From NCBI GenBank assembly GCA_003820375.1, contig RPQH01000008.1:8567-72566 (forward strand): a DNA stretch of 64,000 nt, written 5' to 3'. This DNA comes from Ignavibacteriota bacterium (GTDB lineage Bacteria > Bacteroidota > Ignavibacteria > Tepidaquicellales > OLB5). Under the pieces are notes generated by a model. It was not told the origin of the DNA. It ran no database searches and was given only the letters and a program-made list of their open reading frames with translations. How positions within the stretch are numbered: the first letter of the stretch is position 1; every line of letters starts with the position of its first letter. This document shows, one piece after another, positions 28,205 through 48,527 of the stretch. The translations under genes were made by a program, and so were the position numbers.

Positions 28205-28226
28205 AAAAATTATCCTGTAGATTTAT

Positions 28227-33223: not shown

Positions 33224-33234
33224 TACCCTAAGGA

Positions 33235-33360
33235 CAATTAGCAATGAACAATTAGCAATGAACAATTAGCAATGAACAATGAGCAATGAACAATTAGCAA
33301 TGAACAATGAACAATGAACAATAAGCAATGAACAATGATCAATGAACAATTATCAATGAA
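33235..33360. repeat. Heptamer tandem array (18 units of CAATNRN)
   Basis: caattag caatgaa alternation with variants caatgag, caataag, caatgat and caattat. Confidence 0.9.
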
Positions 33361-33659
33361 GAGCTTAAGAGCCGGAAGTGAAGAGTAGATGATATATAGT
33401 GAATAAATAATGACTCCGGGTGTGTTCTATTGAAAATCCTGCAAATCTGTCTGCCTTTGGTGGAAGCTTCGGCGCAGGGAGGATCTTCGACTTACCTCGC
33501 ATAGACGCCCAACTCAAGACTCCTGGTTCACGACTCATTTTATACACCTGTATATTTTTTTTATACGGTTTTCGTTATTTCTCTTTTTTTTAATTATCTT
33601 CATACCGCAAAATTCTACTTAAATGCACATTTTGTTGAATCTGACAGGTAATTCTGATA

Positions 33660-33675
33660 TGGCACGGCAATTGCT
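33660..33675 (+). promoter_or_regulatory. Sigma-54 (-24/-12) promoter
   Basis: TGGCACGGCAATTGCT matches TGGCAC-N5-TTGCW exactly. It lies 44 nt upstream of ATG 33719, with an aaaggaga RBS in between. Confidence 0.75.
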
Positions 33676-33718
33676 TTAGTTATATACAGAATTAAAAACC
33701 AAAGGAGAACACAAAAAA

Positions 33719-34897
33719 ATGATTACCGAAAAAATATTAGTAGTAGACGATGAAGCAACAGTCTGCTCAAGCATACAAAAAATATTAACCAAAAGAGGTT
33801 ATTCAGTAGATAACTCATTGAATGCGGATGACGCAATATTAAAAATAAAAAATAATAAATTTGACCTCGTAATAACAGATTTAATGATGCCGGGAACAGA
33901 TGGAATGGAACTGCTCCAGATTATTAAACAGCATTATCCTGAGCTTGATGTTATCGTTATTACCGGTTATGCATCAATAGATACAGCAGTAAAAGCAACA
34001 AAGCTGGGAGCAATGGATTACCTTCCAAAGCCGTTTACCCCTGAAGAGCTCACCGAGATAACCAAAAGAGCTATAGAAAAGAGGAAAATGAATGTATCAA
34101 AAAAAGCTGAACCGAAGTCAAAGATAAAACCGGCTTTGAAAAAGAATGACAACATCGATATAGATATGCCGTTCAGCGAAAGTGAAGTTGAATCTCACAC
34201 TTCAAAAGAGTTTGTTGATAAGCTTTCAAGGTCCGATATTCCCCAGCAAAAGAAACCTGCAAAGAAAACCGAATTCTGCAATTCCGGACAGCGTGAATGC
34301 AGACGCCTTGTACTTGAAGGAAGAGAATGCACCGGTGAATGCCCGATAGTAAAGAAAGAAAGAGAAAGAGCAGCTAAAGCAACAGGAAAAACATTTGTTC
34401 ATACTGACGATATAATTGATGTGGATATGCCATTCAACTATTCAGAAGTTGAAAGAATTATGGGAAGCGATTACATTAACTGCATGGACAGGTCTGAAAT
34501 ACCGAGAGCCGGGTTATTCGGAAGAGATTCAAATGCAAAGCATAATGTGCTTGTTGTTGACGACGAACCGATAGTATGCCACAGCTTAAGGAAAATATTG
34601 ACAAAGCAATCATGCTCAGTTGAAGAAGCATTCGATGTTGATGCAGCACTTTTGAAAATGAGACTGAACAAATACGACCTAATATTCTTAGACCTCAAGA
34701 TGCCAAAAAGCGATGGCATGGAACTGTTGAAGTCAATAAAGAATCTTTACCCCGAAATTCCTGTAGTTATGATATCGGGTTATGCATCAATCAAGACGGC
34801 AGTAGAAGCAACCAGAGAAGGTGCATTCAACTTTATTCCCAAGCCGTTTACACCCGAAGAGCTTAAAGTTGTAACCAGAGAAGCACTGGCTGCATAA
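33719..34897 (+). CDS. Dual-receiver response regulator (REC-linker-REC) with Cys-rich linker
   Basis: 392-aa ORF with two receiver domains (VVDDE...DLMMPG; VVDDE...DLKMPK). The linker carries the duplicated motif D[IV]DMPF..SEVE...RS[DE]IP and C-x6-C-x9-C-x3-C. Confidence 0.85.
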   Translation: MITEKILVVDDEATVCSSIQKILTKRGYSVDNSLNADDAILKIKNNKFDLVITDLMMPGTDGMELLQIIKQHYPELDVIVITGYASIDTAVKATKLGAMDYLPKPFTPEELTEITKRAIEKRKMNVSKKAEPKSKIKPALKKNDNIDIDMPFSESEVESHTSKEFVDKLSRSDIPQQKKPAKKTEFCNSGQRECRRLVLEGRECTGECPIVKKERERAAKATGKTFVHTDDIIDVDMPFNYSEVERIMGSDYINCMDRSEIPRAGLFGRDSNAKHNVLVVDDEPIVCHSLRKILTKQSCSVEEAFDVDAALLKMRLNKYDLIFLDLKMPKSDGMELLKSIKNLYPEIPVVMISGYASIKTAVEATREGAFNFIPKPFTPEELKVVTREALAA

Positions 34898-34924: not shown

Positions 34925-34959
34925 AAAAAGCTGCGGGTAATCGCAGCTTTTTGTTTTTT
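34925..34959 (+). terminator. Rho-independent terminator
   Basis: aaaaagctgcg / cgcagcttttt stem with a 6-nt loop and a T-run. Confidence 0.8.
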
Positions 34960-35054: not shown

Positions 35055-35492
35055 ATGTTTTATTCCCGTTATTGCGAATACGTAATTAGAGCCCTGTCCT
35101 ACTTGTCACAATACCAACAAGAGAACAAATACATTATGGCCCGGGAAGTGGCTGATAAGACCGGTATCCCCTATCATTTTCTCTCAAAGATATTCCAGGA
35201 CCTTACAACGACCAGATGGGTACAATCTAAAAAAGGAAAGAACGGCGGTTTCATGCTTGCAGCAGACGGCAGTTCGCTCTCTTTATTAGAAATTATCAAG
35301 TGGAGTGACGGTATTCATAATTTCAATCAATGCATTCTTGGCGACAAAGTTTGCGGTGAAGATTTTGAATGCAGCGTTCACAGAAAATGCTGCCGTTTGA
35401 GGCTTGAGATAGCTGATTTTTTTGAGAAGATGACAATAGGTGAATTTTCGGAAATAAGGAGTGAGACACTGGGACAAAAACAGTTGAATTAG
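35055..35492 (+). CDS. Rrf2-family transcriptional regulator
   Basis: 145-aa ORF with an N-terminal wHTH (YVIRALSYLS...). The C-terminal Cys residues (CILGDKVCGEDFEC) are compatible with Fe-S binding. Confidence 0.8.
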   Translation: MFYSRYCEYVIRALSYLSQYQQENKYIMAREVADKTGIPYHFLSKIFQDLTTTRWVQSKKGKNGGFMLAADGSSLSLLEIIKWSDGIHNFNQCILGDKVCGEDFECSVHRKCCRLRLEIADFFEKMTIGEFSEIRSETLGQKQLN

Positions 35493-35597
35493 AAATGCTA
35501 CAGTTGATTTGGAGACTGGTTTTTACTGCTGAATTTTGATACGATGATGAGTTAATCTTTTTAGAATACGTGGGTTGATTCTCTTTTATTGTTTACG

Positions 35598-36179
35598 ATG
35601 AAGACAATTATTTTAGGAATGGGAAACACCCTGATAAGTGACGATGGGATAGGGATTGTTACATTGCGTTACCTGGAGAAAGTTTTAAGCCATTGCAAAG
35701 AAATTACCTTCTGCGAGACATCATGGGGTGGATTTAGAATCATAGACTTACTTGAGGGTTTTGATTATGCCGTTGTAATTGATTCAATTAAAACCGGAAA
35801 TAAGCCGACAGGTTCTATATACCATTATAAGCCTACAGATTTACTGCCTACACTGCGTTTAACTTCATACCACGATATAAATTTCATTACGGCATTAAGG
35901 CTTGCAGAGTCAATAAATGCAAAAGTCCCGTCCGATATAGACATTTTCGCCATCGAAGTTGAAGATAACCGCAGCATAAATGAAACAATCAATCCAACGT
36001 TGTGGAACAGCATCAAAGAATGCTCACAAGTCATTGCCGATAAATTATTCGAGAAAAACATTATTACATTTAAAATTCCTGCTGAAGAGTTTATTGGAAT
36101 AAAATCAGTTGATGAACTGGATTTATTATATCCCGAAAAAACAGCAGACAGAATAGAAACCGGATTAATTAACAATTAA
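35598..36179 (+). CDS. Hydrogenase maturation endopeptidase (HycI/FrhD/HoxW family) with C-terminal extension
   Basis: MKTIILGMGNTLISDDGIGI signature. The ORF track begins at TTG 35589; ATG 35598 is preferred. Confidence 0.8.
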   Translation: MKTIILGMGNTLISDDGIGIVTLRYLEKVLSHCKEITFCETSWGGFRIIDLLEGFDYAVVIDSIKTGNKPTGSIYHYKPTDLLPTLRLTSYHDINFITALRLAESINAKVPSDIDIFAIEVEDNRSINETINPTLWNSIKECSQVIADKLFEKNIITFKIPAEEFIGIKSVDELDLLYPEKTADRIETGLINN

Positions 36180-36192
36180 GAAAAATAAAGGA

Positions 36193-36876
36193 ATGAAAAC
36201 CGAGTCTGTACAATTACCAGGTAAATTATCAAAAAGAGAAGAAGATCTGAGATCTTCATTCCTGAAACAACTGGAAACAATACCGAACAGCGAAAAGATA
36301 AAATCCTGCATACAGTGCGGCACATGCACGGGTTCATGCCCGGTATCATATGCCATGGATATTTCGCCAAGAGAGATAATTGCATTGTTCAGGGCAGGAG
36401 ACCTTGAAACCCTTTTGAACAGCAAGTCTATCTGGATATGCGCATCATGCTATTCATGCCAGACAAGATGCCCCTCATTAATAAAAGTTACCGATATAAT
36501 GTATGCTTTGAAACGGCTTGCAATGGAAAAAGGCATATTCCCGAAGAAATTCCCTGCTCCTGCACTTTCAGAGACATTCGTAAAAGTTATGAATAACTAT
36601 GGACGGCTTCATGAGCCATTGCTTATTGTAAGATTTTTACTCAAGACTACTCCGTTCAAATTGCTTAATATGATGCCTTTGAGCCTGAAAATGGCAAAAA
36701 GAAAAAGAGTTGCTTATGTCCCTTCAAAAATAAAAGGACTTGAAGGATTTAAGAAGATAATAAAAAAAGCAGAGTTGATGGATTCTCCAAAGGAACTGCT
36801 GGAACCTCAATATTTGAAAGGTTCAGTTGGATACAGTGCTATTGCCAAAGAAACAGTAATGGAATCTAAAAAATAA
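36193..36876 (+). CDS. hdrC: Heterodisulfide reductase subunit C-like
   Basis: 227-aa ORF with CIQCGTCTGSCP and CASCYSCQTRCP motifs. Confidence 0.85.
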   Translation: MKTESVQLPGKLSKREEDLRSSFLKQLETIPNSEKIKSCIQCGTCTGSCPVSYAMDISPREIIALFRAGDLETLLNSKSIWICASCYSCQTRCPSLIKVTDIMYALKRLAMEKGIFPKKFPAPALSETFVKVMNNYGRLHEPLLIVRFLLKTTPFKLLNMMPLSLKMAKRKRVAYVPSKIKGLEGFKKIIKKAELMDSPKELLEPQYLKGSVGYSAIAKETVMESKK

Positions 36877-36890: not shown

Positions 36891-37766
36891 ATGGATTATA
36901 CATATTACCCGGGCTGCAGTTTAGAATCAGCTCATAAAAGTTACAGCGATTCTGTTAAAAAAGTTTTTAAACATCTCGATTGTAATCTGATAGAATTGGA
37001 AGATTGGAATTGCTGCGGTGCAACTGCATATATGGGTGTAAAAGAAACCCTGTCATTTGCAATTTCTGCAAGAAACCTTGCACTTGCCGAAAAACATAAA
37101 AGAGATGTTATTGCTCCCTGCAGCGCATGTTATACAGTGTTAAGTAAAACCAACAGGTATTTAAAACAGCTTCCTGATTTTCACCAGAAAGTAAATGAAT
37201 GCCTGAAAGAAGCAGGTCTGCAGTATAATCTGACGGCTAGTGTAAGACATCCCCTTGATGTGCTGATAAATGATATAGGACTTGATAAGATAAAAGAGAA
37301 ATGTGTAAGAAGCCTTAAAGGATTGAAGATTGCTAACTATTACGGATGCCAGCTTGTAAGACCCGAAAGAGGATTTGATGACAGGGAAGTGCCCATGACA
37401 ATGGACAATTTATTTGAAGCATGCGGCGCTGAAAATGTTTATTATCCCTTTAAAGTAAAATGCTGCGGCGGTATGCTGATGACTACTTATGAAGACATTG
37501 CTTTGAAATTATCAAAAGAAATAATTGCATCGGCAGTAGAAAACAAAGCTGATTGTATTGTAACAACGTGCCCGCTTTGCCAGATGAATCTTGAAGCTTA
37601 CCAGGATTTGATTAATAAACATTACAACACGAATTATGACATGCCGGTATTTTTCTTCACCCAGGTTCTGGGAATGGCATTTGGATTTGATGAAAAAGAA
37701 CTTGGAATAGATACACTTTTAACTAAAGGAATTAAATTAAACGGTTTAACAACCATACATAATTAA
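36891..37766 (+). CDS. hdrB: Heterodisulfide reductase subunit B-like (two CCG domains)
   Basis: 291-aa ORF with CCG motifs DWNCCGA and KVKCCGG plus CPLC. Confidence 0.85.
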   Translation: MDYTYYPGCSLESAHKSYSDSVKKVFKHLDCNLIELEDWNCCGATAYMGVKETLSFAISARNLALAEKHKRDVIAPCSACYTVLSKTNRYLKQLPDFHQKVNECLKEAGLQYNLTASVRHPLDVLINDIGLDKIKEKCVRSLKGLKIANYYGCQLVRPERGFDDREVPMTMDNLFEACGAENVYYPFKVKCCGGMLMTTYEDIALKLSKEIIASAVENKADCIVTTCPLCQMNLEAYQDLINKHYNTNYDMPVFFFTQVLGMAFGFDEKELGIDTLLTKGIKLNGLTTIHN

Positions 37767-37772: not shown

Positions 37773-38639
37773 ATGGACAACAAATTGTCAACAAACGGTT
37801 CACCAAACGGAGAAATAAGAATAGGTTTCTTTATCTGCCACTGCGGTGTAAATATTTCTACTATTGTTAATGTAGCTGAAGTAAGAGATTATGTAGCCAC
37901 ACTTCCGCACGTTGTTGTATCGAAAGATTATAAGTTCATGTGTTCAGACCCGGGGCAGGAAATAATAATAAATGCCGTAAAGACCAATAAGCTTAACAGG
38001 GTTGTAGTAGCAGCATGTTCACCATTGATGCATGAAGGAACATTCAGAGGTGCCTGTGAAAAAGCGGGAATCAATAAATTTTTATTCCAGATGGCAAATA
38101 TCCGTGAACATTGTTCATGGGTTCATGACGATAAAATTCGTGCAACGGAAAAAGCCAAAGCACTTGCACATGCGGCAGTGAAACGCGTTTCGTTCCATGT
38201 ACCGATGACCGTAAAAAAAGCAAAGGTTAATCCTGATACATTAATAGTAGGCGGAGGAATCTCTGGTATACAGGCAGCACTGGATATAGCTGATTCAGGC
38301 AACAATGTTTACCTGGTGGAAAGAGAACCTTCTATCGGCGGTAAGATGGCTTTGTTCGATAAGACATTCCCAACACTTGACTGCTCTGCTTGTATCTTAA
38401 CGCCTAAGATGGTATCGGTAGGACACAGGGATACAATAAAGTTATATACATGGAGTGAAGTTGTTGCAGTTTCGGGATTTTTAGGAAACTTTAAAGTAAC
38501 AATTAAAAAGAAAGCCCGGTATGTGGATACAGATAAATGCACAGGATGCGGACAATGCTGGAGCCACTGCCCTGCTACGAGATTCCCGTCAAAAAGACAG
38601 GTATTCTTTGGTGATAAACTGATTAACGAAAAAAGATAA
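37773..38639 (+). CDS. hdrA: HdrA N-terminal fragment (N-terminal Cys domain + first part of FAD domain + first half of inserted ferredoxin domain)
   Basis: 288-aa ORF with FICHCG, ACSPLMHE, IREHCSW, the FAD dinucleotide motif LIVGGGISGIQAALDIADSG, and CTGCGQCWSHCP. It stops about 20 codons later. Confidence 0.8.
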   Translation: MDNKLSTNGSPNGEIRIGFFICHCGVNISTIVNVAEVRDYVATLPHVVVSKDYKFMCSDPGQEIIINAVKTNKLNRVVVAACSPLMHEGTFRGACEKAGINKFLFQMANIREHCSWVHDDKIRATEKAKALAHAAVKRVSFHVPMTVKKAKVNPDTLIVGGGISGIQAALDIADSGNNVYLVEREPSIGGKMALFDKTFPTLDCSACILTPKMVSVGHRDTIKLYTWSEVVAVSGFLGNFKVTIKKKARYVDTDKCTGCGQCWSHCPATRFPSKRQVFFGDKLINEKR

Positions 38640-39041
38640 ATGTTACTAAAAGAAATAAAAGAACTGCTTAAATGCAATTGGTATTCTTCAGAAGAATTAC
38701 TGAATAAAGAAATACAATATTGCTTTGCAGCAGACTTAATGAGCGATGTATTAAGATACGGACGCACAGGTTCGCTTTTGATGACCGGCTTAACGAGCAA
38801 TCAAATACTTCAGGTTGCAGAGATACTTGACCTTAGCGGGATAATTTTTGTAAGAGGCAAAAAACCCGATGAAAATATAATAGCTACTGCAGAATTAAGG
38901 AAAATACCATTACTTTCAACTAATTTACTTTTATTTGACTCATGCGGTATACTGTACGCTCAAGGATTACGGGGAGGTAAAAGCAACCTGATGGAAAACG
39001 ATGAACCAAAGAGCAATGTACAGTCAATCGTTCACGATTAA
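38640..39041 (+). CDS. DRTGG domain protein
   Basis: 133-aa ORF whose ATG directly abuts the hdrA-N stop. It has the LMSDVL..GRTGSLLMTG pattern. Confidence 0.7.
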   Translation: MLLKEIKELLKCNWYSSEELLNKEIQYCFAADLMSDVLRYGRTGSLLMTGLTSNQILQVAEILDLSGIIFVRGKKPDENIIATAELRKIPLLSTNLLLFDSCGILYAQGLRGGKSNLMENDEPKSNVQSIVHD

Positions 39042-39441
39042 AGGCGGCGATTTCATAAATGCCGGTACGGTATCGGTTAGAATTAAACGGTTACTGAAAG
39101 AAATAGGCTTAAAACCGGATATAATTTATAGAGCAGCAATTTGCTGTTACGAAGCTGAAATGAATGTGGTCATGTATGCAAACGAGGCAACACTGGATTT
39201 TACGATTACTGTAGAAAATATTACTGTAAAATTATCGGATAAGGGACCGGGAATAAAAAATATAGAGCTCGCAATGAAGGAAGGATATTCGACTGCTACG
39301 GAAAAAATGAGAGAGATGGGTTTTGGCGCAGGAATGGGATTACCAAATATTAAAAATAATGCTGATGTATTCGAGATTGAGTCAGAGATTGCAAAGGGAA
39401 CTATCATCAGCTTTAAGATAAACTTAAATGGAAAGCATTAA
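39001..39441 (+). CDS. Anti-sigma-factor-type GHKL ATPase / serine kinase-like protein
   Basis: 146-aa ORF with HATPase_c-like motifs (DKGPGI, GFGAGMGLPN). Confidence 0.7.
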   Translation: MNQRAMYSQSFTIKGGDFINAGTVSVRIKRLLKEIGLKPDIIYRAAICCYEAEMNVVMYANEATLDFTITVENITVKLSDKGPGIKNIELAMKEGYSTATEKMREMGFGAGMGLPNIKNNADVFEIESEIAKGTIISFKINLNGKH

Positions 39442-40765
39442 TAACGGGAATTCGGGTCATTCAATATATTTCGATCCATCGAAATGTAACGGAGATATGG
39501 CTTGCCTCAGGATTTGCCCTGTAGAAGCTATCAGAGTCCGTAACAGAAAATCATATATGCTTCCGGAGAAATGTATTGATTGCGGTGTATGCGTGCAGGC
39601 ATGCAAATCAAAAGCAATTATTCCTTTAACCAATTCATTTACTGACCTCTCAAGCTTTAAATATACGATTGCAATTCCTTCGCTATCCATTTACAGCCAG
39701 TTTGACAGGCACATTACTCCTGATGTAATACTATCGGCGCTTAAGAAGATAGGTTTTAATGAAGTTGTTGATATAACTAAAGCTTGTGTAACCGTTTACA
39801 AAGCTATAAAAAAATATCTCAATGATAACAAAGGAAGAAAACCGCTTATATGCACATTTTGTCCAACTTGTTTGCGTCTAATTCACACAAAATATCCCGA
39901 GTTAATCCAGCATGTAATACCTGTTATCTCACCGATAGAGTTGGCAGCACGCGAAGCAAGAATTGAATATGCAAAAAGATACAGGGTAAAAAAGGAAGAA
40001 ATCGGAATCATTTACATAACACCATGCCCTTCCAGGTTAGCATTAATATCACAGGAAGATGAAAATTATTATCCAAGCTTTGACGGTGCAATTCCTATTA
40101 CAGATATTTATAACAGCCTTTACGCAGCTATTAATACTACATTAAAAGACAGGCATAACGGAACAGAGCATTTTGCAATGAACGGCTTTGGGCTGCATTT
40201 CGGATACCTGGGCGGACTCAGCTATATGCTCGGCACAAATAATCATATAACAATTTCGGGAATAAACAATGTACAGTTCCTGCTAGATGAAATTGACAAA
40301 GGAAAATTAAGCAATATAGAGTTTGTAGAAATGAACTCATGCCAGGAAGCATGTACCGGTGGCTCATTGGTTGTTGAAAACGCATACATGGCAGTAAATA
40401 AAATGAAATATCTTATTGATGAATTTGGGGAAAAGAAACTGCCCATCGGCAAAAAAGATGATACAGATATTAATTCGGTTTATTCGGATTCAATTTTCCC
40501 TTCTATAAACGGGGAACAAAATAATGTTGACCTTGAAGATGCAATAGGAAAGATATCAAAACGGAATGAAATATATTCACAGCTAATGAAAATAAACTGC
40601 AGTGCATGCGGTTCACCGACATGCATGAGCTTTGCAGAAGATGTTGTGCACGATGAAGCCAATATGAATGACTGCATATTTGTTCAGAATGAAGAGTTAA
40701 AGCATAAGTTAAAAGAAAAGATAATGACAATTCTTGAATTACAGCAAAAGCTTAACGAAAAATGA
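39428..40765 (+). CDS. [FeFe]-hydrogenase-like (H-cluster domain) putative sensory protein with N-terminal 2x4Fe-4S and C-terminal 4-Cys domain
   Basis: 445-aa ORF. Ferredoxin motifs are CNGDMACLRICP and CIDCGVCVQACK. Degenerate H-domain motifs are CTFCPTC (L1-like), TPCPSR (L2-like, no Lys) and EMNSCQEACTGG (L3-like). C-terminal CSACGSPTCMSFAE. Confidence 0.75.
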   Translation: MESINNGNSGHSIYFDPSKCNGDMACLRICPVEAIRVRNRKSYMLPEKCIDCGVCVQACKSKAIIPLTNSFTDLSSFKYTIAIPSLSIYSQFDRHITPDVILSALKKIGFNEVVDITKACVTVYKAIKKYLNDNKGRKPLICTFCPTCLRLIHTKYPELIQHVIPVISPIELAAREARIEYAKRYRVKKEEIGIIYITPCPSRLALISQEDENYYPSFDGAIPITDIYNSLYAAINTTLKDRHNGTEHFAMNGFGLHFGYLGGLSYMLGTNNHITISGINNVQFLLDEIDKGKLSNIEFVEMNSCQEACTGGSLVVENAYMAVNKMKYLIDEFGEKKLPIGKKDDTDINSVYSDSIFPSINGEQNNVDLEDAIGKISKRNEIYSQLMKINCSACGSPTCMSFAEDVVHDEANMNDCIFVQNEELKHKLKEKIMTILELQQKLNEK

Positions 40766-41097
40766 AATTAAAAGAATTAACAGAGAAATGCGGGCTGGAA
40801 ACCGTTAACGGCTTTGCTGATGAAAATAAAGAAATAGCCGGTGCTTATTCAAGTGACCTCCTGAGCGATGTAATTGCCAATGCAAAAAAAGATTTTGTCT
40901 GGATAACATTGCAGACTCATTTAAATATAATTGCAGTAGCAGCACTGAAAGAGCTTGCAGCTATAATAATAGTAAATAATAAAGAAATAGACAAAGATAC
41001 ATTACAAAAAGCGGAAGAAGAAAAAGTTACTCTTTTAAGAACAGGATTAAATACTTTTCAGATAAGCGGAAAAATTTATGAGTGCGGTATTCATTAA
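40762..41097 (+). CDS. DRTGG domain protein
   Basis: 111-aa ORF with the LLSDVI pattern. It is paralogous to 38640-39041. Confidence 0.65.
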   Translation: MKLKELTEKCGLETVNGFADENKEIAGAYSSDLLSDVIANAKKDFVWITLQTHLNIIAVAALKELAAIIIVNNKEIDKDTLQKAEEEKVTLLRTGLNTFQISGKIYECGIH

Positions 41098-41111
41098 AAA
41101 CAAAATGTTTA

Positions 41112-41825
41112 ATGAAAATAAAAGCAGATATCCATATTCATACATGCTTATCACCTTGTGCAGATATATTAATATCGCCAAAAAGAATAGTGGAAAAGGC
41201 ATTTAATACAGATTTAAATATGATTTTTATAACAGACCATAATTCACTTAATAATGCAGAAGCGGCAATCAAAGCTGCCCGGTATTATCCATCGCTTGCA
41301 GTTTACCCCGGTATGGAAATCACTTCAAGAGAGGAAGTTCACATACTCGGACTTTTCGGAAATATGGCTGATGCTCTAAGCACAGAAGAAGTAATTACAA
41401 CTTACCTGCCTGATGCAGTAAGTGATTCTGAATACCGTGAGCAAATCATAGCAAATGAGTTTGATGAAGTTGAAGGGTTCTGTTTAAAATCATTATTCAA
41501 TGCAGTAAATATTAAGACTGAAGATATAATAAAACTTATACACAATAATAACGGAATTGCAGCAGCGGCACATATAGACAGGCCAAGCTTTTCAATAATA
41601 AGCCAATTAGGGTTTATTCCGGATGATATAGGATTTGATGCATTGGAGATTTCACCAAACCTTGATATAGAAAAAGCAAAAGAAAAATATCCTGAATACT
41701 TAGGAAAATATAAATTCTTAAGAGGTTCCGATTCTCATTCATTGAATTGGATAGGTTCCGTTTACACTGAGTTTGAAGGTAAAAATAATACCTTTGGAGA
41801 GTTTGCACAGTATTTAATTTCCTGA
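41112..41825 (+). CDS. PHP-domain phosphoesterase
   Basis: MKIKADIHIHTCLSPC..FITDHN..AAHIDR metal-binding His/Asp pattern. The ORF track start at 41082 overlaps the upstream gene; ATG 41112 is preferred. Confidence 0.75.
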   Translation: MKIKADIHIHTCLSPCADILISPKRIVEKAFNTDLNMIFITDHNSLNNAEAAIKAARYYPSLAVYPGMEITSREEVHILGLFGNMADALSTEEVITTYLPDAVSDSEYREQIIANEFDEVEGFCLKSLFNAVNIKTEDIIKLIHNNNGIAAAAHIDRPSFSIISQLGFIPDDIGFDALEISPNLDIEKAKEKYPEYLGKYKFLRGSDSHSLNWIGSVYTEFEGKNNTFGEFAQYLIS

Positions 41826-41827
41826 TA

Positions 41828-42367
41828 ATGCAGGATATTTCATTACATATACTTGATATAGCTGAAAATTCAATCAAAGCAGGTGCAAATTTTATTGAGA
41901 TAGCGATAAACGAAGATACAGAGAAAAATTCTTTGACAATTGAAATAAGAGACAACGGAAAAGGAATGAGCAGCGAGATGGCTGCTAAAGTGAAGGACCC
42001 GTTTACAACATCAAGGACAGAAAGAAAAGTAGGTTTAGGGCTTTCACTTCTTGAACAGGCAGCAATAGCAGCAGGAGGAAAAGTAACGGTTGAATCTGAA
42101 GAAGGAAAAGGCACAACGGTAAAAGCAGAATTCATGTATGATCATATAGACAGGAAACCGATGGGAAAAATTACTGATACTCTTATTTCGTTATTATCTA
42201 ATGAAAATAATATAGATATCAAATACACTCATAAAAAGAACACAGGTGAATTTGAATTTGTCAGCACACAATTAAAAAGTTTATTAGGATTAAATTCCTT
42301 AAAAGACAGCAAAGTGTTAATTGTACTTAAAGAAATTATAAACTCCAAATTAGAAGAAATATCATAG
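41828..42367 (+). CDS. GHKL (histidine-kinase-like) ATPase domain protein
   Basis: 179-aa ORF with LHILDIAENSIKAGA (N-box), DNGKGM and GLGLSLL. Confidence 0.75.
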   Translation: MQDISLHILDIAENSIKAGANFIEIAINEDTEKNSLTIEIRDNGKGMSSEMAAKVKDPFTTSRTERKVGLGLSLLEQAAIAAGGKVTVESEEGKGTTVKAEFMYDHIDRKPMGKITDTLISLLSNENNIDIKYTHKKNTGEFEFVSTQLKSLLGLNSLKDSKVLIVLKEIINSKLEEIS

Positions 42368-42375: not shown

Positions 42376-42828
42376 ATGGAAGCTGATGTTATCGACAAAA
42401 TAATAGAGAAACATCCTAAAGAGCCATCATCAATTATACAGGTACTTCTTGATGTTCAAAGTGAACTGTATTATTTACCCGAAGATGTTCTTAAATACGT
42501 TTCCGCTGAATTAAAAGTACCTATAAGCAGAACTTACAATCTTGCTACGTTTTATAAAGCATTCAGCTTAAAGCCAAAAGGCAAACATCCTATTTCAGTT
42601 TGTACGGGTACTGCCTGTTACGTTGAAGGTGCTGATAAATTAATGGAGCAGTTTGAAAGAGAATTGGGTATAAAAGACGGGGAGACAACTGCTGACAAGA
42701 AATTCAGCTTAGAAAGTGTAAGATGTCTTGGCTGCTGCGGATTAGCACCTGTAGTAACAGTAGGCAAGAACTTACATGGCAAGCTGCCGTCTTCAAAAGT
42801 TGGTAAAATTTTAAAACAATATAAATAA
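42376..42828 (+). CDS. NuoE/HydC-like 2Fe-2S subunit
   Basis: 150-aa ORF with CTGTAC...CLGCCGLAP. Confidence 0.9.
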   Translation: MEADVIDKIIEKHPKEPSSIIQVLLDVQSELYYLPEDVLKYVSAELKVPISRTYNLATFYKAFSLKPKGKHPISVCTGTACYVEGADKLMEQFERELGIKDGETTADKKFSLESVRCLGCCGLAPVVTVGKNLHGKLPSSKVGKILKQYK

Positions 42829-42836: not shown

Positions 42837-43226
42837 ATGGCTTCAAAAATATCAATCGAAGACTTAGCCAAAATAAGGAAAGAGACATTGAGAACGATGA
42901 ACCTGAGAGAAGGTTCAGGAAAAGTTAAGATGAATGTGCATATGGGTACATGCGGTATTGCAGCAGGAGCAAGGAAAATCCTCGAGGCAGTACTGAGCGA
43001 GGTTGAAACACGCGGGCTAAATGATATAATAGTAACAAATTCCGGCTGTGCAGGGCTTTGCAGCCAGGAACCTATGATGACTGTAGAGGTCTATAACGAA
43101 CCGGCACCGGTTAAATATGTTTCTCTTACACCGGAAAAGGTTAAAAAGATTTTTGATTCACACGTTTTAAAAGGTGAAATAGTAAAAGAATATGCACTCG
43201 CTTTAGGCAGCGAGACAACGGTATAA
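42837..43226 (+). CDS. Thioredoxin-like [2Fe-2S] ferredoxin
   Basis: 129-aa ORF with MGTCGIAAGA...GCAGLCSQEP. Confidence 0.8.
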   Translation: MASKISIEDLAKIRKETLRTMNLREGSGKVKMNVHMGTCGIAAGARKILEAVLSEVETRGLNDIIVTNSGCAGLCSQEPMMTVEVYNEPAPVKYVSLTPEKVKKIFDSHVLKGEIVKEYALALGSETTV

Positions 43227-43252: not shown

Positions 43253-45079
43253 ATGGCATACAGAACATATTTAATGGTATGCGCGGGTACTGGATGTGTA
43301 GCCAATAACTCGATGAAAATTAAAGAAAAGCTGGAAGATGAATTACTTAAACGGGGAATTCATAATGAGGTCAGTGTAGTAACAACAGGATGCAACGGCT
43401 TCTGTGCTGCAGGACCTCTGATGGTTGTACAACCCGATGGAGTATTTTACCAGCTTTTAAAAGAGAGCGATATTCCACTGCTTGTAGAAGAGCATTTCAT
43501 AAAAGGACGGCCGGTAAAGAAATTAATGTACACTCCTCCCAAGGAGAAGTCGTCTATCCCGAAAATGTCAGACATCCCCTTCTTTGCTAACCAAACTTTG
43601 ATTGCATTGAAAAACAGGGGCCTGATTGACCCGGAAAAAATTGACGAATACATTGCAAGAGGCGGTTATGAGGCCCTTGCAAAAGTATTAACTACAATGA
43701 CATCTGAAGAGGTAATAAAAGAGATTAAAGATTCCGGTTTACGCGGCAGAGGAGGCGGAGGATTCCCAACAGGTATTAAATGGGAAACCTGTAAGAGAAT
43801 GGAAGCTGATACAAGGTATGTTATCTGTAATGCAGATGAGGGTGACCCCGGTGCATTCATGGATAGAAGCATTATTGAATCAGACCCTCATGCAGTTTTA
43901 GAAGGAATGTGTATAGGTGCATTTGCCATCGGTGCTTCTGACGGATATATCTATATCAGGAATGAATACCCTATTGCACTGCAAAGATTGCAGGTAGCAA
44001 TTAAGCAGGCACGTGAATACGGTCTTCTGGGGAAGAACATATTCGGTACAGATTTCAGCTTTGATGTCAGGATAGTCAGAGGAGCCGGAGCATTCGTTTG
44101 CGGTGAATCAACTGCACTCATGGCATCAATAGAAGGCAAGCCGGGCGAACCGAGAGCTAAATATGTTCATACGGTTGAAAAAGGACTTCACGATAAGCCG
44201 ACATGTCTTAATAATGTTGAGACATGGGCTAATGTTGCACAGATAATAACCAGAGGTGCTTCATGGTTCTCAAGCATAGGTACCGGAGATGTCTCCGAAG
44301 ATGCATGGGGCGGAAGTAAAGGTACAAAAGTATTTTCACTTTCAGGTAAAGTAAATAACACCGGATTAATAGAAGTACCGATGGGTATATCACTCCGCCA
44401 GATAATTTATGATATAGGCGGCGGAATAAAAGACGGAAAGAAATTTAAAGCTGTACAGACAGGCGGACCATCAGGCGGATTTATTCCTGAAAGCCTGCTT
44501 GACCTGCCGGTTGATTATGAAGAACTGACTAGAGTCGGCTCTATGATGGGTTCCGGAGGTATGGTTGTTACCGATGAGGATAACTGCATGGTTGAAATGG
44601 CAAAATATTTTCTCAGCTTCACACAGGCTGAATCATGCGGAAAATGTATTCCATGCAGGGAAGGTACAAAGAGAATGCTGGATATACTTGAAAAAATAAC
44701 AACCGGTGAAGGCACTGAAGAAGATCTTGTATTGCTTGAAGAGCTTTCATACATGGTTGTTGACTCATCGCTGTGTGCTTTAGGCGGTTCAGCACCGAAC
44801 CCGGTATTGACTACCTTAAAATATTTCAGAGATGAATACGAGACTCACGTAAGAGATAAAAAGTGTCCTGCTCACTGCTGCAAAGCTTTAATAAAGTACT
44901 CGATCGATCCGAATATATGCGTAGAAAAAGGACATGGCTGCGGTGTATGTTCAAAGAGCTGTCCTGACGGAGCAATAATAGGTGAATCAAAACAGGTACA
45001 CTATATTGACCTGATGAAATGCGGAAAATGCGGCATATGTTATGACTCGTGTAAGTTTAATGCAATTTATATTGAATAA
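43253..45079 (+). CDS. NuoF/HydB-like flavoprotein, long form (N-terminal 2Fe-2S + FMN/NADH + C-terminal 2x4Fe-4S)
   Basis: 608-aa ORF. N-terminal CAGTGC..GCNGFCAAGP, then GRGGGGFPTG and ESCGKCIPCREG. The C-terminus carries CVEKGHGCGVCSKSCP and CGKCGICYDSC. Confidence 0.9.
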   Translation: MAYRTYLMVCAGTGCVANNSMKIKEKLEDELLKRGIHNEVSVVTTGCNGFCAAGPLMVVQPDGVFYQLLKESDIPLLVEEHFIKGRPVKKLMYTPPKEKSSIPKMSDIPFFANQTLIALKNRGLIDPEKIDEYIARGGYEALAKVLTTMTSEEVIKEIKDSGLRGRGGGGFPTGIKWETCKRMEADTRYVICNADEGDPGAFMDRSIIESDPHAVLEGMCIGAFAIGASDGYIYIRNEYPIALQRLQVAIKQAREYGLLGKNIFGTDFSFDVRIVRGAGAFVCGESTALMASIEGKPGEPRAKYVHTVEKGLHDKPTCLNNVETWANVAQIITRGASWFSSIGTGDVSEDAWGGSKGTKVFSLSGKVNNTGLIEVPMGISLRQIIYDIGGGIKDGKKFKAVQTGGPSGGFIPESLLDLPVDYEELTRVGSMMGSGGMVVTDEDNCMVEMAKYFLSFTQAESCGKCIPCREGTKRMLDILEKITTGEGTEEDLVLLEELSYMVVDSSLCALGGSAPNPVLTTLKYFRDEYETHVRDKKCPAHCCKALIKYSIDPNICVEKGHGCGVCSKSCPDGAIIGESKQVHYIDLMKCGKCGICYDSCKFNAIYIE

Positions 45080-45090: not shown

Positions 45091-46854
45091 ATGATAAAAT
45101 TAACTATAGACGGAAAACAACTCGAGGTTTTTGAAGATACCTCTATATTAAAAGCTGCGGAAAAAGCTGGTATTTGGATACCTACTATGTGTCATTGTGA
45201 TTACATAGAACCATATGGTGTATGCCGTCTTTGCAGTGTTGAGGTGGTAAAAGGAAAAAGAAGCCGTATTGTAACTGCCTGCAACTATCCCGTCAGGGAA
45301 GGGCTTACGGTCAGAACAAACTCCGAAAGAGTAAAATGGATAAGAAAAATCATTATGGAGCTTATGCTTTCACGCTGGCCTAATGTTCCCGCTGTAAAGG
45401 AAATGGCTGAACAGCTTGGTATATCCAAACCAAGATTTGAAAGCAAAGAAAAAGATGAAGCTGAAGATGCATGTATATTATGCGGTATGTGCGTTAATGT
45501 TTGCAATGACCTTGTAGGTAAAGGCGTACTCGGATTTTCGAAAATGGGAATTGAAAGAGAAGTTGTTCTTCCTTACAATGAACGCTCGGAAGAATGTATC
45601 GCATGCGGTGCATGCGCTTATGTTTGCCCGACCAAGCATATTAAAGTTAAATCACTTGAATATGAAAGAGGAGCAATACAGGACTGGAGCCTAGCATCCA
45701 AAACTGCAATTTATGTTCCTACCATGCAGGCTGTACCAAGAGTACCGACTATCGATGAGGCATCCTGTATCAACAAGCAAACCGGCGGATGTAAAGCATG
45801 TCAAACATACTGCGAGCCGGGAGCTATAAATTATGATATGAAAGATGAAGAAATCGAGGTCGAAGTTGGACAGATACTGATTACTACAGGATACCAGCTT
45901 ATGGACCTGACAAAGATGCCGCAGTTTGGTTACGGGCGTCTTGATAATGTATATTCATCACTTGATTTTGAACATATGCTTAACTCAACCGGACCGACTA
46001 ACGGTACAATTCAGTGTAAAGACGGCTCAGTTCCAAGAGCAGTTGGTATTATTCACTGCATTGGTTCAAGAGATGAAAATTATCACAAATACTGCTCAAG
46101 AGTATGCTGTATGTATGCTCTGAAATTTGCACATCTTATTAAAGACAGAACAACAGCAGAAGTATATCAATTCTATATTGATATGAGGGCATTTGGAAAA
46201 GGGTATGAAGAATTCTACAAGAGACTGCTTGATGAAGGAGTAAACATGATAAGAGGTAAAGTCGGAGAAGTAACCGAATGCAGGGTTGACGGCGAAAAGC
46301 CATTCCTGAAAGTTGCATGTGAAGATACACTAATAGGAAAATTCAGGGAAATTCCGCTTGATATGGTAATCCTGTGTCCTGCAATAGAATCGAATGCAGA
46401 CTCATCGGATTTGAAAAAGATATTCTCAATCAGCCAGAGTCCTGATAAATTCTTCCTCGAAAGACATCCAAAGCTTGACCCGATGTCAACAATGACAGAC
46501 GGAATATTTATAGCAGGGTGTGCCCAGGGACCGAAGGATATTCCGGATTCGGTTGCACAGGCATCAGGAGCCGCAGCAAAGATATTATCACTTATTTCAG
46601 TTGGTGAAGTTGCAGTTGATCCTATCAAAGCTGAAATAGTTGAAGAACGCTGCAGCGGATGCCGTATCTGTAATAACCTGTGTCCGTACGGTGCTATATC
46701 ATATATTGATGAAAAGAAAATATCCTTCATTAATGATATGTTATGCAAAGGATGCGGAACATGTGTAGCTGCATGCCCGTCATCAGTAATTACAGGCAAA
46801 GGATTCACAGATGCACAGATAATGGCAGAAATTGAAGGCTTATTGGCTATATAA
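45091..46854 (+). CDS. Fusion protein: HydA/NuoG-type 2Fe-2S + 2x4Fe-4S N-domain joined to the C-terminal two-thirds of HdrA
   Basis: 587-aa ORF. Residues 1-~190 resemble the N-terminus of hydA in this window (IDGK..ILKAA..IPTMCH..GVCRLCSVEV; CILCGMCVNVC; CIACGACAYVCP). The rest continues HdrA exactly where 37773-38639 stops (KTAIYVPTMQAVP..C..CKACQTYC..ILITTGY..IHCIGSRD..CSRVCC..IFIAGCAQGPKDI..CSGCRICNNLCP..CKGCGTCVAACP). Confidence 0.85.
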   Translation: MIKLTIDGKQLEVFEDTSILKAAEKAGIWIPTMCHCDYIEPYGVCRLCSVEVVKGKRSRIVTACNYPVREGLTVRTNSERVKWIRKIIMELMLSRWPNVPAVKEMAEQLGISKPRFESKEKDEAEDACILCGMCVNVCNDLVGKGVLGFSKMGIEREVVLPYNERSEECIACGACAYVCPTKHIKVKSLEYERGAIQDWSLASKTAIYVPTMQAVPRVPTIDEASCINKQTGGCKACQTYCEPGAINYDMKDEEIEVEVGQILITTGYQLMDLTKMPQFGYGRLDNVYSSLDFEHMLNSTGPTNGTIQCKDGSVPRAVGIIHCIGSRDENYHKYCSRVCCMYALKFAHLIKDRTTAEVYQFYIDMRAFGKGYEEFYKRLLDEGVNMIRGKVGEVTECRVDGEKPFLKVACEDTLIGKFREIPLDMVILCPAIESNADSSDLKKIFSISQSPDKFFLERHPKLDPMSTMTDGIFIAGCAQGPKDIPDSVAQASGAAAKILSLISVGEVAVDPIKAEIVEERCSGCRICNNLCPYGAISYIDEKKISFINDMLCKGCGTCVAACPSSVITGKGFTDAQIMAEIEGLLAI

Positions 46855-46895: not shown

Positions 46896-47327
46896 ATGGA
46901 AACTCAAATAAAATCAAAAGAGAATTTTAATCCAAGGATAGTTGCCTTTCTTTGCAACTGGTGTACATACACAGGTGCAGACCTTGCAGGTGTAGCACGC
47001 ATGAAATCTTCACCAAGTGTCCGTGTAATAAGGACCATGTGCAGCGGAAGAGTTGACCCTACATTTGTTTTAAAAGCGTTCAAGATGGGAGCTGACGGAG
47101 TTATGATAGGCGGATGCCACATCGGAGACTGTCATTATTCAGAAGGTAATTTTAAAACATTGAGAAGGGTGGAATTTCTTAAGATAATGCTGAAGGATTT
47201 TGGTATTGACCCCAAAAGATTACGGCTTGAATGGATATCTGCTTCGGAAGGTGATAAATATGCTCATGTTACAAATGAGTTCGAGAAGGAACTGAGAGAA
47301 CTGGGACCATTAGTATTACAGGAGTAA
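46896..47327 (+). CDS. mvhD: MvhD/FlpD-like hydrogenase delta subunit
   Basis: 143-aa ORF with FLCNWCTY..GADLAG..CSGRVDP..GGCHIGDCHY. Confidence 0.9.
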   Translation: METQIKSKENFNPRIVAFLCNWCTYTGADLAGVARMKSSPSVRVIRTMCSGRVDPTFVLKAFKMGADGVMIGGCHIGDCHYSEGNFKTLRRVEFLKIMLKDFGIDPKRLRLEWISASEGDKYAHVTNEFEKELRELGPLVLQE

Positions 47328-47540: not shown

Positions 47541-48527
47541 ATGTCTAAACCAAAACTTGCATTATATTGGGCTTCATCTTGCGGCGGATGTGAGATAGCT
47601 GTAGTAGATCTGGAAGCAAAAATTCTTGATGTAGCCGGTTTCTTTGAAATTGTGTTATGGCCTTGTGTAATGGATTTTAAATATAAAGATATTGAAGCAC
47701 TGCCTGACGGCGATATTACACTCTGCCTGTTCAACGGAGCAATAAGAACTTCCGAGAATGAACATCTTGCAAAAATGCTCAGGGCAAAATCTAAAGTAAT
47801 GGTTGCTTTCGGCTCATGTGCAGGTGACGGAGCTATTCCTTCATTAGCTAATTTCTACGATAAGGACTCTATATACGAATACGTTTTCAAAACATGTCCT
47901 TCACTGGAAGAATCATCCAGGGGTGTTTATCCGGAGACTAAAACTACTATGCCCGAGGGTGAAATCGAAATACCGGTCTTCTGGGAAACGGTAAAAACAC
48001 TTGACCAGGTGATTGATGTTGATTATTATATTCCCGGCTGCCCGCCGCAGACATTTCAGATAGCAGCAGCAGTTGAAGCTGTAATTGATATTCTGCAGAA
48101 CGGTAAGCCGCTTCCTCCAAAGGGAACAGTATTAGGTGCCGGAGATAAAACATGCTGTGATGACTGCACCAGAGTAAAGAGCGAAAAGAAGATAAAAAAA
48201 TTCTACAGGCCGCAGGATATAATTACTGATCCCGAACAATGCCTGCTGGAGCAGGGTATTGTTTGCATGGGACCTGCTACACGCAATGGATGTGAAGCAT
48301 TATGCATGAAAGCAAACATGGGATGCAGAGGATGTTACGGACCTCCTGAAGGTGTGCTTGACCAGGGTGCCAAGATGGTTTCTGCTTTAAGCTCGGTCAT
48401 TGACGCTCAGAATCCTGAAGACGCAAAGAAAATAATAGATACCATTGCAGATCCGCTTGGTACATTTTACAGGTTTTCAATGGCTTCATCAATATTAAGA
48501 AGAGTACAGAAAAAAAATAACAAGTAA
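47541..48527 (+). CDS. mvhG: [NiFe]-hydrogenase small subunit (group 3, Mvh/F420-non-reducing type)
   Basis: 328-aa ORF with WASSCGGCEI, PGCPP and a C-terminal CMGPATRNGCEALC..GCRGCYGP. Confidence 0.88.
   Translation: MSKPKLALYWASSCGGCEIAVVDLEAKILDVAGFFEIVLWPCVMDFKYKDIEALPDGDITLCLFNGAIRTSENEHLAKMLRAKSKVMVAFGSCAGDGAIPSLANFYDKDSIYEYVFKTCPSLEESSRGVYPETKTTMPEGEIEIPVFWETVKTLDQVIDVDYYIPGCPPQTFQIAAAVEAVIDILQNGKPLPPKGTVLGAGDKTCCDDCTRVKSEKKIKKFYRPQDIITDPEQCLLEQGIVCMGPATRNGCEALCMKANMGCRGCYGPPEGVLDQGAKMVSALSSVIDAQNPEDAKKIIDTIADPLGTFYRFSMASSILRRVQKKNNK

Follow-up and report, generated by a model that had tools for sequence, protein, structure and literature searches.

A conserved six-gene cassette around a group D-type putative sensory [FeFe]-hydrogenase homologue in a [NiFe]-Hdr operon of an Ignavibacteriota bacterium

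The window analysed here, a 64,000-nucleotide (nt) stretch of contig RPQH01000008.1 from the metagenome-assembled genome of an Ignavibacteriota bacterium, contains six densely packed plus-strand open reading frames at positions 38640-42367, the third of which encodes HydS, a homologue of [FeFe] hydrogenases (RPI19128.1, annotated in the database only as '4Fe-4S dicluster domain-containing protein'). Based on comparisons of domains, predicted structures and gene neighbourhoods, we assign HydS with confidence to the putative sensory [FeFe] hydrogenases of group D/M2e, and conclude with the same confidence that the six genes, in the order DRT1-ATP1-HydS-DRT2-PHP-ATP2, form a single cassette. The explanation that in our judgement best fits the evidence as a whole, and that we consider reasonably likely, is that the HydS cassette senses H2 and tunes the NADH-linked enzyme with which it is co-expressed; that the cassette acts as a sensor or regulator of some kind appears probable to the same moderate degree. 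The six genes and their domains agree, by Pfam and by coordinates, with the module read from this segment in a first-pass annotation made by a model from the letters alone.

The H-domain proposed there for HydS is borne out. Pfam recognises it as Fe_hyd_lg_C (86.6 bits, residues 84-312) and places PF04060 FeS at residues 388-418, hhalign relates HydS to the window's own [FeFe] hydrogenase HydA (probability 99.1%, E 1.9e-18), and an AlphaFold (AF2) model built from 21 homologues (pLDDT 82.5) finds exclusively [FeFe] hydrogenases among the top 50 PDB matches of Foldseek (best E 1.4e-17, TMq 0.61). The cysteines previously suggested as H-cluster ligands also fall into place, as C145, C200, C305 and C309 align with C300, C355, C499 and C503 (CpI numbering), both against solved [FeFe] hydrogenases using HMMER and against HydA using hhalign. 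In a family alignment of 383 members, to which all counts out of 383 refer, these four are kept in 378-383 relatives, and the four C-terminal cysteines in 99-100%. The motifs around the ligands deviate from those of catalytic enzymes. In L1, C145 occupies the [4Fe-4S] ligand position within CTFCP as compared to TSCCP, the proton-relay cysteine (C299 position) being replaced by Phe144, in agreement with the earlier remark that the TSCCP proton-relay context is absent. In L2, C200 lies within TPCPSR as compared to MPCxxK, with Thr198 in place of Met (M353 position; Thr in 227/383 and Ser in 128/383 of the family) and Arg in place of Lys (K358 position). In L3, C305 and C309 lie within EMNSCQEAC as compared to ExMxCxxGC, with Asn in place of Met (M497). 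The L2 lysine was described earlier as lacking; this holds for the window HydS and its two closest relatives, all of which carry Arg instead, but not for the family, where Lys is found in 287/383 and Arg in 31/383.

The bridging cysteine C309 is kept in 378/383 relatives, and Lys or Arg occupies the K358 position in 318/383. Proline is found in 270/383 at the P231 position (Pro84) and in 372/383 at the P324 position (Pro169), and serine less strictly, in 161/383, at the S232 position (Ser85); we take these three positions to be contacts to the CN ligands of the [2Fe] subcluster in group A enzymes. As far as sequence can tell, the near-invariant bridging cysteine, the mostly retained prolines and the Lys/Arg at the K358 position favour a true H-cluster site in the HydS family. 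Towards the C-terminus, the four-cysteine domain noticed earlier is confirmed as an exact Cx2Cx4Cx16C motif (C391-x2-C394-x4-C399-x16-C416) covered by the PF04060 match, and what had been called a coiled-coil tail is predicted as one long helix (residues 417-444) that is variable across the family. No PAS domain is detected in HydS by Pfam or NCBIfam. Assignment to the catalytic group A or B [FeFe] hydrogenases was considered and rejected, as the NCBIfam scores are far under the cut-offs (FeFe_hydrog_B1, 95 versus 450 bits; group A, 66.6 versus 406 bits) and the CTFCP, TPCPSR and EMNSC motifs are not intact.

M2e/group D is defined (Land et al. 2020; PMC8163306) by a pair of clusters at the N-terminus, the Cx2Cx4Cx16C motif, the absence of both PAS and C299, and exchange of M353 for Ser or Thr. 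Since the architecture and the substitutions of HydS match this definition, it is a member of a named, poorly understood class rather than of a new one, consistent with the non-catalytic, sensory kind proposed in the first-pass annotation. The studied representative, TamHydS from Thermoanaerobacter mathranii (PMC8163306, PMC10407848, PMC13104023), resembles HydS in its two N-terminal [4Fe-4S] motifs, four-cysteine H-domain, Cx2Cx4Cx16C motif, lack of PAS and of C299 and hydroxyl residue at M353, and is likewise encoded with a multimeric hydrogenase that is NADH-linked. TamHydS takes up the [2Fe]adt cofactor, binds the H-cluster and is a proposed H2 sensor (PMC8163306), and its activity is low (PMC8163306, PMC10407848). 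The window HydS differs in having Leu for E252, Leu for S249, Phe for Ala at the C299 position and Arg for Lys at the K358 position, and the presumed client is [FeFe] HydABC for TamHydS versus a [NiFe]-Hdr enzyme here. Unlike what is typical of group D, the window gene is not located upstream of a group A multimeric [FeFe] hydrogenase, although distant members of the cassette family do precede HydABC. Group D/M2e proteins are apparently what HydDB-based surveys report as 'C1' (PMC5037454, PMC8542988, PMC11406978). Many surveys of metagenome-assembled genomes (MAGs) count such genes as hydrogenases, and metabolic H2 turnover may have been overstated there.

HydS relatives are widespread. A hidden Markov model scan of 1.84 billion representative proteins yielded 712 clusters (50% identity) at E <= 1e-30, and a pattern scan of species-representative genomes, one per species, found a relative encoded in at least 591 (591/600 matched stretches). 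The 80 best loci, closest to the window HydS, were compared in detail, with genes labelled using the window proteins. The six-gene order holds throughout, the exceptions being contigs that are cut short, fused genes and a small number of loci (L056, L059, L073 and L076) with local rearrangements or incomplete gene sets; all six genes are labelled separately in 61/80, and median gaps within the cassette range from -4 to +7 nt. In the window, the successive gaps across the array, starting at the preceding hdrA piece, are 0, -41, -14, -4, -16 and +2 nt, followed by +8 nt before NuoE. The ATP-binding motifs of ATP1 and ATP2 and every metal ligand of PHP are invariant among the relatives. Independent natural fusions join the same components: DRT2 at the C-terminus of HydS in six proteins (P0101, P0140, P0170, P0185, P0217 and P0250), a DRTGG domain at its N-terminus in two (P0127 and P0186), an HATPase_c_2 ATPase domain at its N-terminus in one (P0199), DRT1 with ATP1 in four loci (L024, L040, L066 and L072) and PHP with ATP2 in three (L067, L073 and L076). 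This pattern suggests three pairs, DRT1-ATP1, HydS-DRT2 and PHP-ATP2, with the two paralogous DRTGG proteins possibly bridging the first two. Group D [FeFe] hydrogenases have been proposed to be sensory, with the identification of their interaction partners named as a critical missing step in a 2026 study (PMC13104023); the conserved cassette and its fusions supply five concrete candidates.

The cassette is portable and not confined to hydrogenase operons. A majority of the 80 loci repeat the full operon HdrC-HdrB-HdrA(N)-cassette-NuoE-Fd-NuoF-NuoG~HdrA(C)-MvhD-[NiFe], where Fd denotes ferredoxin, in Ignavibacteria, Aminicenantes, Sumerlaeota, Acidobacteriota, Bacteroidota and others, and elsewhere among them it stands after either [NiFe] small-large-protease or NuoE-Fd-NuoF-histidine kinase-response regulator. 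No true HydA is found within 10 kb at any of the 80. Among distant cassette members, that of Haloplasma contractile (L083) is followed by NuoE-Fd-NuoF and then [FeFe] HydA, a Syntrophorhabdaceae MAG (L086) shows a similar order preceding HydA, and that of Caloranaerobacter azorensis (L082, 5832-14781) stands immediately upstream of rnfCDGEAB. A stand-alone five-gene cassette (L085, 8170-11403) lies between a SPOR-domain gene and mraZ, beside cell-division genes, and a variant trio (L084, 8169-10305) consists of receiver-ATP1-HydS, with a receiver domain replacing DRT1. In Thermoanaerobacter, Caldicellulosiruptor and Clostridium thermocellum, the genes of bifurcating HydABC have previously been noted to be preceded by group D genes (PMC3561251). 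What most cassette contexts appear to have in common is an NADH-binding flavin module of NuoF or RnfC type, not a particular hydrogenase. Since the sensor is attached to [NiFe]-Hdr and Rnf too, NADH-linked electron-bifurcating modules, rather than one hydrogenase, are indicated as the controlled target. The [NiFe]-Hdr context further shows that sensors of the [FeFe] type can be coupled to a hydrogenase from the other metal class, as well as to Rnf. In the literature searched, neither the cassette with its strict order of six genes nor the fusions nor the link to [NiFe]-Hdr and Rnf systems is described, and a search for DRTGG or PHP combined with hydrogenase returned nothing relevant.

The partners of HydS carry domains of a regulatory type. 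DRT1 displays the conserved motifs sDLMSDVL, LLTGL.N.Q and VRGK.P, and its paralogue DRT2, whose start overlaps the HydS stop by 4 nt, the invariant motifs Y.sDLLSDV and W.T.Q.H.N; against solved structures, the DRT2 profile gives marginal matches only, to the DRTGG domain of CBS-pyrophosphatase and the N-terminal domain of HPr kinase (E about 0.4). ATP1 is closest to SpoIIAB structures in the PDB (E 8e-8), with anti-sigma F factor as best NCBIfam match (46.5 bits, far under the cut-off of 135) and an invariant N-box (YEAEMN), G1 box (D.G.GI) and G2 box (GFGAGMGLPN). ATP2 is of another type. Its profile matches the CA domains of histidine kinases (KinB, 1.8e-14), yet its AF2 model (pLDDT 84.3) fits these over about 100-110 columns only, compared to about 180, the full length, for the N-terminal fragments of MutL, PMS2 and Topo VI-B; the predicted second domain renders the whole protein similar to these fragments and not to a bare kinase CA domain. 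Hence, of the two ATPases initially described as GHKL/anti-sigma-type, ATP1 is SpoIIAB-like, with a putative kinase activity, but ATP2 is histidine-kinase CA/MutL-like and not of the anti-sigma type. Pfam reports the ATPase domain alone in each, with no HisKA/DHp phospho-acceptor domain. Directly after its Bergerat fold, ATP2 carries the invariant motif H106-x-D-R-x-P-x-G113, which is loosely H-box-like only. A circularly permuted mini histidine kinase was considered, as SHIDRKPLG recalls the HisKA H-box, and dropped, since distant members keep H..P.G only and the MutL-type fold fits better. Judging from the model, ATP2 may be an ATP-driven clamp rather than a kinase. In PHP, the metal-ligand motifs DxHxH, DHN, G.E, H, HxDR and SDxH are all invariant. 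An anti-phage defence reading of the PHP and GHKL pair was also rejected, as PADLOC gives a single weak GHKL match and the genes are fixed within redox-enzyme operons across phyla.

The cassette is reminiscent of two known arrangements. In the SpoIIAB-SpoIIAA-SpoIIE and RsbW-RsbV-RsbU partner-switching systems, as here with ATP1, whose nearest solved relative is SpoIIAB, a small stand-alone GHKL protein occurs alongside a small alpha/beta protein and a phosphoesterase; the cassette differs in having DRTGG instead of STAS, PHP instead of PP2C, no sigma target and an additional GHKL ATPase of the other type. The partner-switching-like set postulated in the first-pass annotation is therefore not established, as a likeness to partner-switching kinases is seen in ATP1 alone, and PHP and ATP2 resemble other enzymes. 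Group C [FeFe] hydrogenases (M2f; TmHydS, Thermoanaerobacterium HfsB; HydDB C3; PMC5037454, PMC8924675) share with HydS an H-domain without proton-relay cysteine and a C-terminal four-cysteine cluster, adjoin bifurcating hydrogenases together with ATPase/kinase and phosphatase genes (PP2C phosphatase and kinase in the case of HfsB; PMC5037454, PMC8924675), and have a proposed role in H2 sensing. They carry, however, PAS and a link to a Ser/Thr (PP2C-type) phosphatase, whereas the cassette has no PAS, two DRTGG proteins, PHP and two GHKL ATPases.

Table 1. Features of the window discussed in the text, in order of position.
Feature	Position	Strand	Remarks
HydA, trimeric [FeFe] hydrogenase	18945-20837	-	NF040763 813 bits (cut-off 765); TIGR02512 493 bits (cut-off 406)
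HydB-like	20815-22032	-	
HydC-like	22033-22506	-	
sCache-HAMP-HisKA sensor kinase	23043-25031	+	
NtrC-type sigma-54 activator	25015-26430	+	
Sigma-54 -24/-12 element	33660-33674	+	Exact TGGCAC-N5-TTGC; 45 nt upstream of REC-REC gene
REC-REC double-receiver protein	33719-34897	+	392 aa; Cys-rich linker C187, C194, C204, C208
Strong terminator	34925-34952	+	After REC-REC gene, ahead of operon
Rrf2 regulator	35055-35492	+	Probable operon start; C-terminal Cys cluster C93, C100, C106, C112, C113
Hydrogenase maturation protease	35589-36179	+	TIGR00072 match; no Pfam match at E 1e-5
HdrC	36193-36876	+	
HdrB	36891-37766	+	
HdrA N-terminal piece	37773-38639	+	288 aa; directly upstream of cassette; NCBIfam HdrA2 model positions 1-256, 365 bits
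DRT1, DRTGG-domain protein	38640-39041	+	133 aa; cassette gene 1; Pfam DRTGG 27.2 bits
ATP1, SpoIIAB-like GHKL ATPase	39001-39441	+	146 aa; ATG at 39016 = possible start; Pfam HATPase_c_2 and HATPase_c
HydS, group D/M2e-type putative sensory [FeFe]-hydrogenase homologue	39428-40765	+	445 aa; E252-less subclade; Pfam Fer4 x2, Fe_hyd_lg_C, PF04060 FeS
DRT2, second DRTGG protein	40762-41097	+	111 aa; DRT1 paralogue; Pfam DRTGG, weak Hpr_kinase_N match
PHP-family metal-dependent phosphoesterase	41082-41825	+	247 aa; ATG at 41112 = possible start; Pfam PHP and PHP_C
ATP2, GHKL ATPase with C-terminal alpha/beta domain	41828-42367	+	179 aa; Pfam HATPase_c 65.5 bits, HATPase_c_3
HydC/NuoE-like	42376-42828	+	Pfam/NCBIfam
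HydD-like 2Fe-2S ferredoxin	42837-43226	+	Pfam/NCBIfam
HydB/NuoF-like	43253-45079	+	Pfam/NCBIfam
HoxU/NuoG-like N-terminus (2Fe-2S/4Fe-4S) fused to HdrA C-terminal part	45091-46854	+	NCBIfam HdrA2 positions 239-640
MvhD	46896-47327	+	NCBIfam best match VhuD
[NiFe] small subunit, Mvh/Vhu type	47541-48527	+	NCBIfam best match VhuG
[NiFe] large subunit, Mvh/Vhu type	48546-50021	+	NCBIfam best match VhuA
Second hydrogenase maturation endopeptidase	50729-51208		Followed by hypB, hypF, hypD, hypE

As for the genes around it (Table 1), the cassette is embedded in a [NiFe]/Hdr operon, an arrangement conserved in several phyla, and HydS is almost certainly co-transcribed with that operon, because the gene spacing is tight and no strong terminator is present between 35055 and 50021; the embedding claimed in the first-pass annotation is in full agreement. 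The hdrA gene is split, with nine genes between its halves, and the split is retained in most of the 80 loci. This hints at a bifurcating complex of chimeric type (NADH-Hdr-[NiFe]) that combines components of HydABC with those of Hdr-Mvh. The HydC/D/B-type NADH module (NuoE, Fd and NuoF) travels with the cassette, and together with the NuoG-like HydA N-terminus they look like a block from an [FeFe] HydABC operon, which appears to have been spliced into hdrA, thereby splitting that gene. We note that two maturation endopeptidase genes flank the single [NiFe] operon.

From the anatomy, conservation and fusions described above, we infer the following working for the cassette. HydS would bind H2 at its H-cluster without a nearby proton relay (Phe and Leu at the respective positions) and, with very slow turnover, respond by a change of state instead. 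The DRTGG proteins would serve as adaptors linking HydS to ATP1, which would set the switch through ATP binding, hydrolysis or phosphotransfer, and the PHP-ATP2 pair would reset the switch or provide its output. In this manner, the co-expressed NADH-linked, ferredoxin-coupled enzyme would be tuned by H2 pressure; one organism whose HydABC genes are preceded by a group D gene is known to show an effect of H2 pressure on its NADH-dependent hydrogenase activity (PMC3561251). A specific phospho- or nucleotide-switch with a post-translational target is a tentative proposal, post-translational control being read only from the operon position. Taken to its fullest extent, the cassette would be a self-contained ATP-driven H2 switch, with an H-cluster sensor, DRTGG proteins in the place of STAS, a SpoIIAB-like ATPase and a PHP-GHL ATPase reset, that gates [FeFe] HydABC, [NiFe]-Hdr-NuoEF and Rnf post-translationally and whose [NiFe]-linked sensor is a relay-less, non-turnover detector, a version that we regard as speculative and on the unlikely side.

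Several observations weigh against H2 sensing by the cassette as outlined, foremost at the proton relay of HydS. A proton pathway particular to group D has been described that leads from E252 via E289 and S249 to D265, with E252 being 'exclusive' to this group and indispensable for the oxidation of H2 (Cabotaje et al. 2023; PMC10407848); E252 and S249 (TamHydS numbering) show high conservation within group D, and the TamHydS variants E252V and E252D retain <0.01% of activity (PMC10407848). In the window HydS, Leu264 (within GYLGGL) is found at the E252 position and Leu261 at that of S249, and the equivalent of E289, Glu301, is kept. Family-wide, Glu occupies the E252 column in 182/383, the rest being mostly Leu, Ile, Gln or Val, and it occurs in 0/80 of the loci closest to the window HydS. 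By sequence alignment, HydS of the [NiFe]/Hdr-linked clade accordingly lacks a side chain that can be protonated at both of the known relay positions, and as E252 is needed for H2 oxidation by TamHydS, the H2 reactivity of this clade is perhaps very low or absent. An E252-less HydS might nevertheless be able to bind H2, as the base is provided by the cofactor's amine, in which case turnover should be extremely slow; alternatively, the clade may have lost the [2Fe] subcluster altogether, and insertion of this subcluster into HydS is putative. The clade-wide loss of E252 represents a natural experiment on sensing versus catalysis at the H-cluster.

A second set of objections concerns the maturases. 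As stated in the first-pass annotation, hydEFG are absent from the window: among 17 otherwise unidentified open reading frames of at least 150 amino acids (aa), none has the radical-SAM motif CxxxCxxC expected for hydE or hydG, nor a P-loop GTPase motif as in hydF, and within 10 kb of the 80 loci hydEFG were not seen, with two unrelated radical-SAM-like open reading frames as the only matches. The organism probably makes H-clusters, with maturases elsewhere in the genome, because HydA of the window passes curated cut-offs, but this conclusion is slightly weakened by the atypical L1 of HydA, FTSCSPGW, with Ser at the usual site of the [4Fe-4S]-ligand Cys next to canonical L2 and L3. A TSCSPGW-type L1 variant has been reported from Melainabacteria (PMC3787301). 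HydA belongs to a HydABC-like cluster (18945-22506) on the opposite strand, 17 kb from HydS, that was overlooked in the first-pass annotation, as were the named class of HydS and the portability of the cassette. Further points on the same side are the likeness of PHP to nucleotide and nucleic-acid phosphoesterases, the likeness of ATP2 to GHL ATPases that are not protein kinases, the absence of STAS, PP2C and sigma-factor domains (Pfam, NCBIfam) from the six proteins and their immediate neighbours, the putative nature of the switch target, the transcriptional routes offered instead by the kinase, NtrC, sigma-54 and REC-REC system and by Rrf2 near the operon, and a literature search that returned no experiment on the window HydS or any cassette partner.

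Alternatively, HydS could be a redox sensor without H-cluster, keeping the [4Fe-4S] part only, like Nar1/IOP1, and reporting the ferredoxin/NADH poise through the same cassette, which we consider unlikely. Such a function would suit the unprotonatable Phe144 and Leu264, the replacement of M353 and M497, the occurrence of cassettes beside Rnf and alone with no hydrogenase nearby, and the lack of hydE or hydG near any locus (in the window and within 10 kb of the 80 loci). It would also agree with a metagenomic study in which the P1-P3 motifs could scarcely be recognised among 'C1' proteins and a role in sensing H2 was questioned (PMC11406978). On the other hand, C309, the Lys/Arg at the K358 position and the prolines corresponding to Pro84 and Pro169 are retained at the frequencies given above, Ser85 less so, TamHydS with the same architecture accepts [2Fe]adt, and the window also carries a gene for an [FeFe] HydA. 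Eukaryotic Nar1/IOP1 is indeed comparable to HydS as an H-domain homologue that keeps the cluster-binding cysteines, yet is not a hydrogenase. Nar1 is not known to have the residues holding the [2Fe] subcluster or the Cx2Cx4Cx16C tail; the HydS family, in contrast, mostly keeps Lys/Arg at K358 and Pro at P231 and P324, and often Ser at S232.

A transcriptional output of HydS is a live rival, and one that could coexist with post-translational control. HydS and its partners would then act on the sCache kinase, NtrC-type activator, sigma-54 and REC-REC system, or on Rrf2, and control expression in the manner of HoxJ/HoxA, an account that we likewise rate as having a small chance of being correct. 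In many loci, genes for a histidine kinase and a sigma-54 activator are conserved in the vicinity of the operon or cassette, the pair flanking the same operon in L001, L003, L005, L020, L048, L058 and L081; the -24/-12 element upstream of the REC-REC gene is exact, and orthologues of that gene are preceded by the same motif in 12 loci belonging to several phyla. The variant cassette with a receiver domain in place of DRT1 points in the same direction, as does the HydDB label of class C1, 'histidine kinase-linked (putative)' (PMC5037454), under which such proteins are apparently reported. However, the sigma-54 unit apparently ends at the strong terminator that follows the REC-REC gene, so that this unit is probably separate from the hydrogenase operon and its promoter apparently not the driver of the latter, a role for which it had been considered. 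In addition, the kinase is equipped with its own Cache sensor in the periplasm, no such two-component genes are found near the cassettes of Haloplasma, Syntrophorhabdaceae, Caloranaerobacter and L085, and no DNA-binding domain is present in the cassette. The regulatory [NiFe] hydrogenase system HoxBC/HoxJ/HoxA (HydDB group 2b) provides the precedent, using a low-activity hydrogenase homologue as H2 sensor for hydrogenase genes, as proposed here for HydS; the window operon, too, is accompanied by a histidine kinase, an NtrC-type activator and a sigma-54 promoter, with a putative link to HydS. The window system differs in that the sensor is of the [FeFe] type and the controlled enzyme of the [NiFe] type, the sensor is encoded inside the structural operon, and no PAS kinase is fused or adjacent.

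We find it improbable that HydS is instead a structural or catalytic subunit, serving a hybrid [FeFe]/[NiFe]-Hdr-NuoEF complex as a second subunit for H2 activation or electron entry, with the small proteins in assembly or scaffold functions. Its gene is translationally coupled and forms part of the structural operon, where it is placed between the hdrA halves and nuoE, the two N-terminal F-clusters would be suitable for electron transfer, and one MAG study raised a metabolic role for the 'C1' enzyme (PMC8542988). Moreover, hybrid complexes exist in archaea, where group F/G [FeFe] and group 3f/3g [NiFe] genes occur together with HydB/C/D, in one cluster with NuoE-, NuoF- and NuoG-like modules (PMC11216029). 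The [FeFe] domain of the archaeal enzymes is catalytic and exists as a fusion with the [NiFe] small subunit, whereas the window HydS is of the sensory type and encoded by a separate gene, eight genes upstream of that for the [NiFe] small subunit, with regulatory-looking partners and with Hdr included. The sensor or regulator role is favoured over that of a subunit because the cassette is portable between client enzymes, including Rnf and stand-alone contexts, its domains are of regulatory type and the characterised group D enzyme is low in activity; the missing proton pathway of HydS and the presence of two ATPases and a phosphoesterase without role in known hydrogenase complexes further disfavour a subunit.

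Equally remote is an effector function of the PHP-ATP2 pair as a MutL/EndoQ-like or RNase AM-like unit that would break down a nucleotide signal (for instance pAp or an oligonucleotide) or process the operon mRNA under control of HydS instead of dephosphorylating a protein, since the relatives that suggest it, namely EndoQ, 3e0f, the RNase AM-like 5'-3' exoribonuclease 7ug9 and 2yb1, including nucleoside bisphosphate phosphatases, as nearest solved structures of PHP, RNase RNM and 3',5'-nucleoside bisphosphate phosphatase in NCBIfam, and MutL, PMS2 and Topo VI-B for the ATP2 model, along with the PHP~ATP2 fusions, are offset by the fact that all matches are remote and under the family cut-offs, no nucleic-acid-binding domain is present and defence-system matches are limited to the weak GHKL one. 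PHP enzymes also include protein tyrosine phosphatases.

Regarding the neighbouring regulators, Rrf2 occurs at some of the related loci (several, though not every one) and may be a transcription factor of the operon that responds to redox state through Fe-S. The REC-REC protein bears repeated 'D(I/V)DMPF..SEVE' motifs. Its gene is separated from that of the NtrC-type activator by about 7.3 kb (26430-33719), with genes for apparently secreted proteins at 28521-30287 and 30422-31192. The segment looks like an insertion, as no more than 0.2-0.6 kb separates the two genes at the syntenic loci of Ignavibacteria (L001, L003, L005 and L048).

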